The notes under the pieces are model-generated. The model worked only from the letters and a program-made list of their open reading frames with translations, was not told where the DNA came from and made no database searches. Source: Candidatus Iainarchaeum sp. (GTDB lineage: Archaea; Iainarchaeota; Iainarchaeia; Iainarchaeales; JACQJH01). From it: 32,000 nt of DNA. Where the stretch lies: contig JACQJH010000002.1 of assembly GCA_016205145.1 (NCBI GenBank), positions 450,001 to 482,000 of the forward strand, given 5' to 3'. Positions 1-30,583 of this stretch are shown in pieces (the stretch's first letter is position 1; every line of letters starts with the position of its first letter). The translations under genes were made by a program, and so were the position numbers.

Positions 1-95
1 AAGCACGCCCGCGCCGGCCGGACAAAAGCAGCTTACTCGGCCGTTCGCAGCAGCGGACGGCCCTGGTTTCGGACCAGCCGGACGAAACCGGCTTT

Positions 96-638
96 TCAAA
101 ACAGCAGGCCTTTGAGCAGGGTTACGCTGTAATAGCCGGCGTAGGCAATTATAATGTATCTGACTGTCTTGCCGCTGATTGCAAGGGCTGCGAACTTCCT
201 GAAATCGTAGCTTATCAGGCCGGCGGCAATGCCTATGACGTCGAAGCCCAGCGGCAGCAAGGCGCCGAAGAAGATTATGGGCGCGCCCTTTTCCTTTATG
301 GTTTTTGTCATGCCAAGGATTTTCCTGAGATGCGGCTTGTCGAACTTTTCCAGGCCGACCGAGCTGGCTTTGCCGAGAAGGTAGCCCGTGCATTCGCCCA
401 GGCCGGCGCCGATTCCGGCGAACAGGCCCAGCAGCAATGGGCTGAAAACCCCGAGATTGTTGAAATTGAACAGCGGCGCGGACGTAAAAATGAGTATTTC
501 AATCGGCAGCGGAAAGATTATTGTGGCATTCGCTATGAGCGATGCGAGGAAAAAGCCCGGCAGGCCGTAAGTCTGGACAAGCGATGCGAGAAATGCCTCG
601 AGGCCCATGCAACCGGATGAAAGTTTGGCTGGAAGCAT
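96..638 (-). CDS. DedA/YqaA-type (VTT domain) integral membrane protein
   Basis: 180-aa ORF with several hydrophobic helices. The segment GLPGFFLASLIANATIIFPLPIEILIF resembles the conserved DedA/YqaA core. An alternative ATG lies at 608 (MGLEAF...). Confidence 0.72.
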   Translation of the reverse strand: MLPAKLSSGCMGLEAFLASLVQTYGLPGFFLASLIANATIIFPLPIEILIFTSAPLFNFNNLGVFSPLLLGLFAGIGAGLGECTGYLLGKASSVGLEKFDKPHLRKILGMTKTIKEKGAPIIFFGALLPLGFDVIGIAAGLISYDFRKFAALAISGKTVRYIIIAYAGYYSVTLLKGLLF

Positions 639-7751: not shown

Positions 7752-7914
7752 TTTCCATCCGACCGAAAGCGCGTCCGAGCGAAGCGAGTCTGCACTGCAG
7801 GGGTTGCACCCCTTGCAAACCCCCGGACTCTTTAATGGAATACTCGGCATATTGCATAGCAATATGCCTTGGTTTCGGCACGCGCGGTCGAAAACGCGCC
7901 CGGACGTGACGGCG

Positions 7915-7932
7915 AGCCGGACGGAACCGGCT
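7915..7932. terminator. hairpin AGCCGG-N6-CCGGCT abutting the mre11 stop codon
   Basis: A 6-bp GC stem overlaps the TAG stop (7931-7933, minus strand). On the plus strand a T7 run follows at 7940-7946. The same motif occurs at 76-93. Confidence 0.35.
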
Positions 7933-9175
7933 AAGCCAGCTTTTTTTCATATGCCCGCTGGACAAAGCTTATGGCGCCGTCAATGTCGTTTTCCTCAAGC
8001 AGCCTGAAAAGCTGCCTCACATCGATGCCCTTGTCAAAGCCGGCTTCCTCAAGGTTTTTTTCCAGGAGGTCCAAGCCGAGCGCGGAAACAGATTTTTTTT
8101 CCAGCTGGTTTTTGCGCAGTTCCTCGATTCTTGACCTGAACGATGCCAATGCAAAGTCCCTGTCGACCGAAAAAATCGCCTTTGCCTCGAACCCTTTCAA
8201 TGCGTTTTCAACCGCAACGTCTGAAACCGAAATGCCTTTGGCAAGCGTGCCGGCAAGCTTGATCCTCACAAGGGGCTTGTCCGCAAAGTCTTGGGAAAAG
8301 ATTTTTTCCAAGCCGGCACGGACGGCGGAAACAACCTGTTCGGGCCGGGCGTTCTCGAAAGAAATCTTCTCGTAAAAGAATTTTCTCTGGTCCGGCAGGG
8401 GCACTGAAGAAATCGCCTTTGTTTTGGTGTCAAAGACGAAAACCTGCTTCGGCTTTTCGCTTTCAAGCTTTTTCATCTGCGTGATTATTATCGAACCGGG
8501 AATGAGGAACCTGAAGCCCTGCTCTTCATGCCAATGGTTCCAGTGTATGTGGCCGTTGACCACAAGGTCAAAGCCCTTTTTCAGGTCGGCAAAGGAAAGG
8601 GTTGCAATGTCATCGGATTCGAACGGCAGGAGTTCCGCAACGGACTGGTGCATGACAAGAATGTTTGTTTTCCCATTTTCCGGCTGCGGGTTCCACAATG
8701 CAAAGACATCCCTCGCCTTCCTGTCCGGCACGGAGCCTATGCAGTGCAGCACTGTTTCCTCGCCGCCTTTCGACGCGAGGATTTTCGACGCATGGCTTAC
8801 GGACAGAAGGCCTGCCGCCTCAAGCAGTTCCAGGGCGCTTTTCCTGTCCTTGCCCCTGAACTCGTGGTTTCCGAAAATCGCGATTACCGGAATGCCCTGC
8901 GAGTGAATGGTTCTGCTGCCGCCGTTTTTTTCAATGGAAAGCGAGACTCCGGTTGAAGGGAATTCCTTTGCAAGCGAAAAAACCTTCATCGCCCCGAAAA
9001 TTGTTTCAGGCGAAGGAAGCTCGGAATCGAAAATGTCGCCCGGCACGACAATCAAGTCAACGCCCTGTTCCGCAAGAATGCGCAGGGCATTGCCTGCCTG
9101 CCGGAATGTTTCCTGGAAGCGCTCGGTTTTTTCGCCGAAACCGAAATGCGTGTCGGAAAAAAAGCCGATTTTCAT
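7931..9175 (-). CDS. mre11: Mre11-type DNA repair nuclease (calcineurin-like metallophosphoesterase)
   Basis: Phosphoesterase motifs DTHFG, GDIFD, GNHE and GHIH, with archaeal Mre11 length. The ATG at 9175 (MKIGFF) overlaps the HAD gene stop as TGATG. The track start at 9184 is a GTG. Confidence 0.8.
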   Translation of the reverse strand: MKIGFFSDTHFGFGEKTERFQETFRQAGNALRILAEQGVDLIVVPGDIFDSELPSPETIFGAMKVFSLAKEFPSTGVSLSIEKNGGSRTIHSQGIPVIAIFGNHEFRGKDRKSALELLEAAGLLSVSHASKILASKGGEETVLHCIGSVPDRKARDVFALWNPQPENGKTNILVMHQSVAELLPFESDDIATLSFADLKKGFDLVVNGHIHWNHWHEEQGFRFLIPGSIIITQMKKLESEKPKQVFVFDTKTKAISSVPLPDQRKFFYEKISFENARPEQVVSAVRAGLEKIFSQDFADKPLVRIKLAGTLAKGISVSDVAVENALKGFEAKAIFSVDRDFALASFRSRIEELRKNQLEKKSVSALGLDLLEKNLEEAGFDKGIDVRQLFRLLEENDIDGAISFVQRAYEKKLA

Positions 9176-9890: not shown

Positions 9891-9902
9891 GAGAAAATAA
9901 AG
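9891..9902 (+). promoter_or_regulatory. TATA-like box (GAGAAAATAAAG) upstream of the tRNA-Cys transcription unit
   Basis: Its centre is about 26 nt upstream of 9924, where the conserved leader element begins. Confidence 0.35.
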
Positions 9903-9923
9903 ACGTACGGTGCAAACCGTCCG

Positions 9924-9988
9924 AAAGCAGATGGGTATCGAGCAAAAGCGAGATACCCGTCGTCGCTTCACGCAGCCGAAACTGCGTG
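9924..9988 (+). repeat. copy 1 of a two-hairpin structured element (in the 5' leader of tRNA-Cys)
   Basis: Hairpin A spans 9933-9958 (GGGTATC/GATACCC, extended through tandem G.A pairs to a GC stem with an AAAA loop). Hairpin B spans 9969-9988 (CACGCAG-CCGAAA-CTGCGTG). A 15-nt 5' block and a 35-nt 3' block (1 mismatch) are shared with 30489-30548. Confidence 0.6.
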
Positions 9989-10003
9989 CGGGCGAATCGG
10001 CTT

Positions 10004-10161
10004 GCGGGTGTGGCGGAACGGCTACGCAGCCGCCTGCAGCTAAGCTTTTCTTTCTTTTTGGAAAAAAGAAAGAAAACCTTAAGGCCACCAAAAGAAAGAA
10101 AAAAAGCTTTGGTGCCATTAGCAGCGAGCGGCGCAACGGGGTTCGACTCCCCGCATCCGCT
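10004..10161 (+). tRNA. tRNA-Cys (GCA) with an 87-nt intron at the canonical 37/38 position
   Basis: Hand-folded. Acceptor GCGGGTG/CATCCGC has one G-U pair. The D arm is GCGG-AACGGCT-ACGC. The anticodon stem is GCCGC/GCGGC, and the spliced anticodon loop is CTGCAGA. The variable loop is GCAA. The T arm is CGGGG-TTCGACT-CCCCG. The discriminator is U73, a Cys identity element. No CCA is encoded. The mature length is 71 nt. Confidence 0.78.
10040..10126 (+). other. tRNA-Cys intron with a bulge-helix-bulge splice motif
   Basis: The central 4-bp helix pairs 10034-10037 with 10121-10124. It is flanked by 3-nt bulges AGC (10038-10040) and CGA (10125-10127). The interior holds a 14-bp A/U hairpin (10046-10059 with 10062-10075) and a second hairpin. 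Confidence 0.65.
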
Positions 10162-10277: not shown

Positions 10278-10661
10278 TTATTGCCTGCTGCCCATCATGC
10301 CGAAGCCATAGCCGCTTCCGGTGGAGTTACCCATCATCCCGAAACCGTCGCCGTTTCCGGCAGAGTTGCCCATCATCCCGCCGCGGAAGCCCGCTGCGTT
10401 ATGGCAGGGCATCTCATTCCAGTGCTCCTGCATCTCTTCCTGCATTGCGTCAAAAAACTTCTGGTCTGACCAGTTTTCCTTGACTGCTTTTTCCCTTATG
10501 TCGGATATGTCATTCATGTGCTGGAACATTCCTTCAAACCAGCCATTGCCTGCTTCAGATTTTTGCGCGGATTGCGCACTGTTGGCCTGGGCAAGGGAAA
10601 AGCCCGCCATCAGCACTACCAAGAAAGCCACTGCCAAAGCAGCCAGCAAAATTTTCCTCAT
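10278..10661 (-). CDS. small secreted or membrane-anchored protein with a Gly/Met-rich C-terminal repeat
   Basis: The ATG at 10661 is preceded by GGAGGT with a 7-nt spacer. The N-terminal signal/TM segment is MRKILLAALAVAFLVVLMAGFSLAQA. The C-terminus carries GGMMGNSAGNGDGFGMMGNSTGSGYGFGMMG repeats. Confidence 0.6.
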   Translation of the reverse strand: MRKILLAALAVAFLVVLMAGFSLAQANSAQSAQKSEAGNGWFEGMFQHMNDISDIREKAVKENWSDQKFFDAMQEEMQEHWNEMPCHNAAGFRGGMMGNSAGNGDGFGMMGNSTGSGYGFGMMGSRQ

Positions 10662-10668
10662 TCGTAAA

Positions 10669-10674
10669 ACCTCC
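10669..10674 (-). promoter_or_regulatory. Shine-Dalgarno sequence GGAGGT
   Basis: Lies 7 nt upstream of the ATG at 10661 and sits within a possible AAAACC/GGTTTT hairpin. Confidence 0.5.
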
Positions 10675-10804
10675 AAGGTTTTTGGCAAAAAAACGAATTG
10701 CCTTGAATCGGCGAAAAACGCCAAACCAAGAACAGGCTTTTTTGCCATAAGACTTATTGCACGCGGAGGTTATTGTGGGTTGCCGGTTAAACCGTTCAGA
10801 ACCG

Positions 10805-30462: not shown

Positions 30463-30488
30463 CCGCCACAACTTGTTATCATGAAAAT

Positions 30489-30548
30489 AAAGCAGATGGG
30501 TATTGCAACGGCAATACCCGTCGTCGCTCCACGCAGCCGAAACTGCGT
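30489..30548 (+). repeat. copy 2 of the two-hairpin structured element
   Basis: Hairpin A spans 30498-30519 (GGGTATTGC-AACG-GCAATACCC). Hairpin B spans 30531-30548 (ACGCAG-CCGAAA-CTGCGT). The flanking blocks are nearly identical to 9924-9987. Confidence 0.6.
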
Positions 30549-30583
30549 AAAGTTAAAAACATCTATCATGGACTTCTTGTACT

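Follow-up and report, generated by a model that had tools for sequence, protein, structure and literature searches.

The window analysed here is a 32,000-nucleotide (nt) stretch (positions 450,001 to 482,000) of contig JACQJH010000002.1 of Candidatus Iainarchaeum sp., an archaeon of the Diapherotrites/Iainarchaeota (DPANN) whose 1.25-Mb genome is represented by two contigs, C1 and C2, and is 97.8% complete; the window lies in C2. Homologues that best match its TruD protein bear the names Candidatus Diapherotrites or Iainarchaeum. An earlier note, made from the letters of the window alone, had pointed to two loci with the same pair of hairpins. The first (copy 1) lies in front of a tRNA-Cys gene and the second (copy 2) in the spacer between the genes for TruD and GT4. 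Streamlined DPANN genomes are thought to be poor in selfish DNA. We nonetheless consider it fairly probable that both loci are copies of a small insertion element. They comprise the following parts.

9924–9988, plus strand: copy 1, subfamily (a); covariance model 79.8 bits, E = 1.4e-20; from alignment and folding
9924–9930, plus strand: A-rich lead-in and GCAG of copy 1
9930–9961, plus strand: hairpin 1 of copy 1, with a tandem G.A tip
9962–9969, plus strand: linker of copy 1, GTCGCTTC
9970–9987, plus strand: hairpin 2 of copy 1, ACGCAG-CCGAAA-CTGCGT
30472–30548, plus strand: copy 2, 77 nt that the closest relative lacks; covariance model 76.1 bits
30472–30491, plus strand: A/T-rich 5' part of copy 2, CTTGTTATCATGAAAATAAA
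30492–30495, plus strand: GCAG of copy 2
30495–30522, plus strand: hairpin 1 of copy 2, with the tip TTGC-AACG-GCAA
30523–30530, plus strand: linker of copy 2
30531–30548, plus strand: hairpin 2 of copy 2

The two look-alike loci proved to be as first drawn, since the shared blocks, their coordinates and both folds were reproduced and the resemblance is far beyond chance. A 15-nt block, AAAGCAGATGGGTAT, occupies 9924–9938 and 30489–30503, and a 35-nt block with a single T/C difference occupies 9953–9987 and 30514–30548 (offset 20,561 nt), on the plus strand in every case. With up to three mismatches allowed, the window contains the 35-mer at these two places and nowhere else, and 100 dinucleotide-preserving shuffles yielded no match. 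Copy 1 folds into hairpins 1 and 2 with a minimum free energy of -33.2 kcal/mol (z -6.3), and copy 2 does likewise with -28.4 kcal/mol (z -4.8); the reverse strands of both fold nearly equally, as near-palindromes would. Their hairpin-1 tips are built differently, that of copy 1 from a C-G pair, tandem G.A pairs and GC-AAAA-GC, that of copy 2 from three Watson-Crick pairs and a tetraloop. The impression that the element belongs to no recognised RNA family was borne out by the Rfam covariance models, none of which matched it at the gathering score or at E <= 1.

The element had been described as present twice, a count that did not hold. A BLAST and word search of the genome returned many partial and full matches, and a covariance model (R1), based on an alignment (A1) of 15 full copies that have the same arms, found 78 matches genome-wide at E < 1e-3. 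Four of these lie in the window (20–97, 7832–7903, 9919–9991 and 30484–30552), and the two beyond copies 1 and 2 stand in the following features.

20–97, plus strand: subfamily (b) copy, CTTACTCGGCC...GGCCCTGGTTTCG-GACC-AGCCGG-ACGAAA-CCGGCT; 36 bits, E = 2e-8
7752–7930, plus strand: a spacer made wholly of mosaic repeat modules, with a subfamily (b) copy at 7832–7903 and extra hairpin-2 units

Members of the family follow a common plan of hairpin 1, linker and hairpin 2. The unit of two hairpins measures ~65 nt. It opens with an A/T-rich 5' part, followed by a long hairpin whose arms are specific to the subfamily and whose tip can be exchanged; then come a short linker starting with TCG and, last, a hairpin with a 6-bp stem and the loop NCGAAA, which forms the exact 3' end of the element. 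Upstream of hairpin 1 the extent is variable, from ~3 to >80 nt, and arrays, where present, are direct. We distinguish four types of hairpin-1 arms: (a), GCAGATGGGTAY...RTACCCGTCGTC, found in both focal copies; (b), CTTACTCGGCG...CGCCTTGGTTTCG; (c), GGCAGAGGGTT...AACCCTCAACGTCG; and (d), GCCAGCGCTATGCGAGC...GCATAGTGCGTCG. The tip is mostly 13 nt long; in some copies it contains two additional hairpins and measures as much as 66 nt. The linker occurs as GAACC, GGACC, GCTCC or GCAC. Arms, tips, linkers and hairpin-2 stems are combined in many ways, modules being shuffled between subfamilies. Two tip modules recur: YGAGC-N3-4-GCGAR, which contains tandem G.A pairs and is the type of copy 1, and TTGC-N3-4-GCAA, the type of copy 2. 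What the earlier note had pointed out, a tip that differs completely between the focal copies while its structure is preserved, is thus a swap of two modules that recur throughout the family; the structure is indeed kept, although not through stepwise compensatory evolution.

Within the genome the family is locally dense at C2:424000–526000, a region that includes the window and in which most copies, by hand count, lie on the plus strand. One variant, combining the (a) arms with a GCTYC linker and an ACGCAG hairpin, is found at C2:459919, 480484 and 510262, always on the plus strand and within 50 kb, and this same-strand cluster suggests local spread. A composite of ~150 nt occurs in four copies (C2:424440–424642, 567351–567553 and 397623–397824, and C1:362216–362417). 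Its first unit resembles a three-way junction, with a hairpin-1-like 5' arm, a G.A-type tip and a GTGTAGGGGG...CCCCTCACA hairpin, and is followed by CCCCGAATGTTTAATGCGAAAATAAA, which resembles an archaeal B recognition element and TATA box, and then by a full (a) copy.

Beyond this genome, 19 of 61 genomes of the same order have matches, copy numbers ranging from 0 (complete genomes included) to 41, and the forms carried at order level are diverged. An exact-pattern scan of genome contigs for the subfamily (a) arms gave 0 matches outside the genome itself; a looser scan of metagenome contigs gave 120, and all of the 80 listed score <=23 bits with the covariance model and are chance matches. 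Full-text literature searches returned no description of the element.

The fold of the sense strand is under selection. Across the 15 copies of A1, 91% of cells are paired and eight pairs show changes on both sides, as against pairing in only 27–49% of cells when the partners are slid by one to three columns. Hairpin 2 covaries at five of its six pairs in the same alignment, with a score reached by none of 500 shuffles, and again at five of six pairs among 54 distinct linker plus hairpin-2 sequences, where it is 98% paired. Over all 78 copies hairpin 2 contains 13 G.U and one A.C combination (binomial p 0.002, a value that is overstated since the copies are not independent), and in hairpin 1 a U.G wobble is invariant in subfamily (a). 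Because such wobbles would be mismatches on the complementary strand, it is the sense strand that is kept foldable, as RNA or as single-stranded DNA. The earlier proposal of a functional RNA or single-stranded-DNA hairpin therefore stands as far as the covarying fold and the strand are concerned, while 78 copies and their turnover do not fit an RNA gene with two copies or a leader dedicated to a tRNA. We agree, too, that this is no protein-coding remnant; the fold is what selection keeps.

A further pairing, between the UCG preceding the linker and the CGA of the hairpin-2 loop (3 bp), is available in nearly all copies and never varies, and is thus uninformative. A 5-bp version, UUUCG with CGAAA, is confined to subfamily (b), where three copies have the compensatory variant UUCCG with CGGAA. 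In copies 1 and 2 the pairing is limited to 3 bp and a pseudoknot is unproven. Two familiar RNA motifs were considered and rejected. The tandem G.A tip has neither the C/D or ACA boxes nor the 3-nt bulge of a kink-turn, C/D-box or H/ACA RNA, and it swaps with a plain Watson-Crick tip; the GAAA of the CGAAA loop lies in a closed hairpin loop and not in the three-way junction of a hammerhead, and neither this nor another small ribozyme finds an Rfam match.

Comparison with relatives, which for this purpose are short metagenome contigs (L005–L011), indicates that copies have been gained, or swapped for others. The relatives share the gene order eRF1-TruD-GT4, and in L005, the closest relative (TruD 81% identical), the TruD-GT4 spacer has no element: against it the window has a clean 77-nt insertion at 30472–30548, directly after which AAAGTTAAAAACATCTATC is identical at 19 of 19 positions. 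The TruD and GT4 genes overlap in L006 and are separated by an unrelated spacer in L007, both without the element. With the site empty in its relatives, parsimony favours a gain in the lineage of the window. The inserted DNA contains 20 A/T-rich nucleotides upstream of GCAG, similar to the TTTAATGCGAAAATAAA that precedes other (a) copies, and lies upstream of a conserved A/T-rich stretch in front of GT4. At the tRNA-Cys locus the relatives L009–L011, whose HAD protein is 87% identical, have near-identical DNA in the HAD-proximal 70 nt and in tRNA exon 1, and between them a subfamily (d) copy where the window has an (a) copy. At a third site, the 179-nt spacer of repeat modules at 7752–7930 corresponds to only 19 nt in L008. 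The syntenic conservation that a dedicated RNA gene or leader motif would lead one to expect is therefore not seen, the element being absent at two orthologous sites and of another subfamily at the third.

Some copies also bear marks of insertion in their flanks. Target duplications starting exactly after hairpin 2 are found at C1:74152 (24 nt) and C2:230019 (40 nt), and at C2:343114 12–16 nt of the end of a tRNA-Pro are duplicated. At the third site, CTA at 7931–7933 of the plus strand is the stop codon of a convergent phosphoesterase gene and is formed from the final two bases of the last hairpin-2 unit plus an A; the phosphoesterase of L008 has a different C-terminus. By our own reading of gap values, nine copies in the whole genome terminate at, or within, the stop codon of a convergent open reading frame. 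In G029, a relative from another family, C1:199766–200002 (loci L142, L143 and L154) holds three tandem copies with an 85-nt period.

Two copies in the same orientation, 20.5 kb apart and one of them beside a tRNA gene, might instead be the remnants of a local segmental duplication or the attachment (att) sites of an integrated element of that size. We give this next to no credence. The flanks of copies 1 and 2 outside the element are unrelated, the very point on which a local duplication would have betrayed itself; the interval consists of housekeeping genes (eRF1, TruD and similar) in conserved synteny; and 76 further copies lie elsewhere. Either version, duplication or att pair, was rejected on these grounds.

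The position of the element relative to tRNA genes is far from random. Hairpin 2 lies within 0–3 nt, mostly 0–1 nt, of a tRNA end in 15 copies, where random non-coding placement predicts 0.11 (at most two in 2000 trials), and in four more tRNA-linked copies, copy 1 among them, only another, often decayed, hairpin-2 unit intervenes. Hairpin 2 points towards the tRNA in each of the 19 flanking copies (binomial p 4e-6), so that upstream copies lie on the strand of the tRNA and downstream copies on the opposite strand. The same polarity is found in six of six abutting copies of G029, which has different arms. An acceptor stem begins both at the 5' end of a tRNA gene and, read on the other strand, at its 3' end, so the rule can be restated as a 3' hairpin followed by the start of a long stem, and tandem hairpin-2 units fit it as well. 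The 3' hairpin thus abuts mature tRNA ends or the 3' hairpins of older copies, on either strand. Whether copies always lie near tRNAs or 3' untranslated regions, a question left by the earlier note, has a divided answer, because 15 abut tRNA ends and ~70% are not beside tRNAs at all. Orientation relative to neighbouring protein genes showed no bias, on crude open reading frame calls, and its correlation with GC skew is weak (26:12 versus 18:22, by our own count). The long introns of tRNA-Gly(CCC) and tRNA-Arg(CCG) each contain a family member, at C1:450580–450653 and C1:561312–561381 respectively, which fits the idea of insertions that make tRNA introns longer or give rise to them. The reading as a portable tRNA promoter in the sense orientation, or an oligo-T terminator in the antisense one, was rejected, as the A/T-rich 5' part is inconsistently present or oriented in tRNA-adjacent copies.

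The neighbourhood of copy 1 contains the following features.

9892–9901, plus strand: A-rich TATA-like box GAAAATAAAG, candidate promoter of pre-tRNA-Cys; kept in L008, its promoter function being predicted
9988–10003, plus strand: 16-nt spacer GCGGGCGAATCGGCTT, the degenerate remnant of an older tRNA-abutting hairpin; manual alignment with relatives
10004–10161, plus strand: tRNA-Cys(GCA), with exon 1 at 10004–10039, an 87-nt intron at 10040–10126 and exon 2 at 10127–10161

ARAGORN misses the tRNA at 10004 by default and calls it Gly-GCC when introns are allowed, but removal of the 87-nt intron at the canonical 37/38 position yields a clean tRNA-Cys(GCA) with U73. The earlier placement of a tRNA-Cys 16 nt after copy 1 was thus correct, and the gene is the sole Cys tRNA found in the genome. 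The 16-nt spacer is identical at 12 of 17 positions, in a manual alignment, to the hairpin AGCCGG-ACGTGA-CGGCT that stands in relatives at the same place directly before the tRNA; because of this alignment, we place copy 1 upstream of a hairpin that belonged to an earlier occupant and has since decayed. Since the TATA-like box is conserved in L008, it is a feature of the locus, not of the element. Between copy 1 and the tRNA there is no A/T-rich, promoter-like stretch, which implies that the sole tRNA-Cys is transcribed through copy 1, and the genome encodes an RNase P RNA (C1:598632–598912). Judging from the arrangement of these signals, it is almost certain that copy 1 forms part of the ~80-nt leader of pre-tRNA-Cys, much as the earlier note had predicted. 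The best reading is that its leader role is a consequence of the landing site and not the purpose of the element.

Some other features concern this neighbourhood and tRNA genes elsewhere. The intron of tRNA-Cys is A/T-rich and palindromic (AAGCTTTTCTTTCTTTTTGGAAAAAAGAAAG...) and resembles the long introns of tRNA-Gly(GCC) and tRNA-Val (C2:593188–593345 and C2:88190–88341), a likeness in sequence that suggests another family of repeats, one particular to tRNA introns; in L009 and L010 the orthologous intron is similar in style and diverged. At C1:242432–242542 ARAGORN reports a 'tRNA-Cys(gca) with intron' that has a CTCATAA anticodon loop after the insert; this gene probably encodes a CAT (Met/Ile2) tRNA and has its intron at an unusual, non-canonical place. 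Downstream of the tRNA-Cys, two tandem 39-nt repeats, 79% identical, occupy 10291–10368 inside a 156-aa open reading frame (10278–10748, minus strand) that has no Pfam match.

Not all of our observations sit easily with an insertion element, and several weigh against it. No Y1/RAYT (PF01797), RVT_1 (PF00078), TnpB or Cas1 was found in a six-frame search of the genome in which control genomes matched, and no protein family in the genome has three or more copies, although DDE transposase families were not searched individually. Neither focal copy has a target duplication beyond chance (a TATCATG shared near copy 2 was rejected, as it falls inside the control distribution), and only two to four of the 78 copies have one anywhere. 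A hairpin that abuts tRNA-Cys holds the same position in two relatives. Finally, abutment of tRNAs at 0–1 nt, the fixed polarity and the deep conservation of NCGAAA could equally reflect a function for the host.

The form that such a function might take is a cis-acting RNA module, a structured cap at the ends of stable-RNA genes (sense as leader, antisense as trailer) and in some mRNA spacers, which would help to set or shield the ends of transcripts, direct RNase P or tRNase Z, or stop read-through, and would have been duplicated for its usefulness. Besides the constant polarity at mature tRNA ends, extending to G029, and the hairpin kept at tRNA-Cys, the order-wide conservation of the NCGAAA loop and its preceding TCG speaks for this explanation, as do the sense-strand wobble pairs, which suggest a fold at the RNA level, and the presence of an RNase P RNA that could process leaders. 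However, the downstream copies are antisense, so that the tRNA transcript would contain their complement in place of the sense fold that is conserved. The many copies away from tRNAs, with no preferred orientation to neighbouring genes, are likewise hard to accommodate, as are the lack of the element in most genomes of the order, complete ones included, and its absence or replacement at orthologous sites in close relatives. On balance we think a host-beneficial RNA module unlikely.

The search for enzymes did bring up two tyrosine recombinase genes, one of them XerA-like. A weak tyrosine-recombinase match at C1:505011–505475, in a 404-aa frame, lies ~500 nt from tRNA-Ser/Leu genes with repeat copies, and this frame may be the integrase of an integrated element. 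The presence of these genes invites the thought that the repeat is a binding or recombination site at the DNA level, its folded strand or cruciform being recognised by a Xer-type tyrosine recombinase, a chromatin factor or a replication factor, in the manner of integron attC sites and of elements that exploit Xer. Conserved arms around a variable tip (13–66 nt) and strand-specific folding do resemble attC-type sites. Against this, the recombinase genes have no shown link to the elements, which are dispersed and not arranged in cassette arrays; no dif-like core was seen, although no search aimed at one was run; and the correlation of orientation with GC skew is too weak to help. This explanation appears to us distinctly improbable.

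Taking these points together, our preferred reading, held with reasonable though far from complete confidence, is that both loci are copies of a small (~65–150 nt), non-coding, non-autonomous and fold-dependent insertion element. It is best read as having spread through this DPANN genome, with diverged forms of it spread through part of the order. The sense-strand fold of the element is preserved, copies are gained or exchanged between relatives and modules recombine between copies. We propose that the fold is required for propagation via a single-stranded intermediate, either DNA or RNA, which would be recognised through hairpin 2 and the TCG/CGAAA motifs by a single-copy or host enzyme, for which we have no candidate to offer. 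Copying or insertion would then be anchored at the 3' hairpin, with the 5' extent left variable. Alternatively, propagation may proceed without a transposase, by template switching when replication stalls at hairpins, which would account for the missing transposase, for the mosaics, for a 5' extent that varies and for duplications that are either long or absent. In either case both focal copies would be passengers, copy 1 transcribed within the ~80-nt pre-tRNA-Cys leader and removed by RNase P, copy 2 residing in the TruD-GT4 spacer.

A more specific and more tentative proposal, possible but in our view rather doubtful, is that this is a transposase-less, fold-dependent DPANN element that homes with fixed polarity, to within 0–1 nt, to mature tRNA ends and other stem bases. 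It would use the host's machinery for nucleic-acid processing or replication, for example structure-specific nicking or ligation, or template switching at hairpins. Its insertions would give tRNAs long, structured leaders and trailers and would be the seed of the unusually long tRNA introns in these organisms.

In this 1.25-Mb genome a repeat with no recognisable transposase makes up ~0.4–0.5% of the DNA and reshapes spacers, the ends of genes and the flanks of tRNAs. The polarity rule, by which the 3' hairpin is set against mature tRNA ends on either strand, is a sharp clue that points to an insertion mechanism recognising structure, one that matches none of the described transposon families with which we compared it. 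The element also bears on the origin of long archaeal tRNA leaders and introns. For annotation, its copies should not be called small-RNA genes, nor promoter or leader motifs of their neighbours.

Among known systems, the behaviour of the element is closest to that of mosaic hairpin repeats (BOX elements and bacterial interspersed mosaic elements, BIMEs) and of elements of the repetitive extragenic palindrome (REP/REPIN), miniature inverted-repeat transposable element (MITE) and short interspersed nuclear element (SINE) types, and it fails the tested defining features of each. A further comparison is offered by the transposed tRNA introns of archaea (Thermoproteales) and by split-tRNA leaders, in which repeated modules occur at different tRNA genes. 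Two of our copies are likewise inside tRNA introns, whereas most lie outside tRNAs, also in protein-gene spacers, and the element ends show no bulge-helix-bulge. With SINE-like retroposons the element may share the pattern of an exact 3' end, a variable 5' extent and long variable target duplications (24 and 40 nt, in two copies only), and it is likewise associated with tRNAs, but there is no RVT_1 match here, no A-tail and no tRNA-derived body.

MITEs such as the Sulfolobus SM-type and Neisseria Correia elements are similarly non-autonomous, with empty and filled sites between relatives and possible co-transcription with neighbours. The termini of copy 2, A/T-rich at the 5' end and hairpin 2 at the 3' end, are by contrast not inverted repeats, the inverted repeat being internal; target duplications are of no fixed short length (12–16, 24 and 40 nt elsewhere, none at the focal copies); and no parent insertion sequence (IS) or multi-copy transposase was found, within the limits of the family search given above for DDE transposases. 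REP/REPIN elements with their RAYT transposases and the palindrome-associated transposable elements (PATEs) derived from IS200/IS605 resemble ours in strand-specific folding, high copy number and patchy occurrence among relatives, and in single-strand hairpin recognition, which we propose for ours; they differ in having a Y1 transposase or TnpB, neither of which our six-frame search detected. The hallmark of REPs is a single imperfect palindrome of 20–40 nt with a conserved 5' tetranucleotide, often in inverted doublets, whereas the archaeal element is a two-hairpin unit with long target duplications, no GTAG-type 5' motif and no inverted doublets.

Pneumococcal BOX elements and enterobacterial BIMEs, finally, are like our element short, non-coding, folded and intergenic repeats of shuffled modules, present in dozens of copies per small genome, and BOX elements are not known to have a dedicated transposase. 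What sets the present element apart from them is its archaeal host and unrelated sequence, an asymmetric unit with an exact 3' hairpin end, a strict polarity to tRNA ends and, in some copies, target duplications of 24–40 nt.

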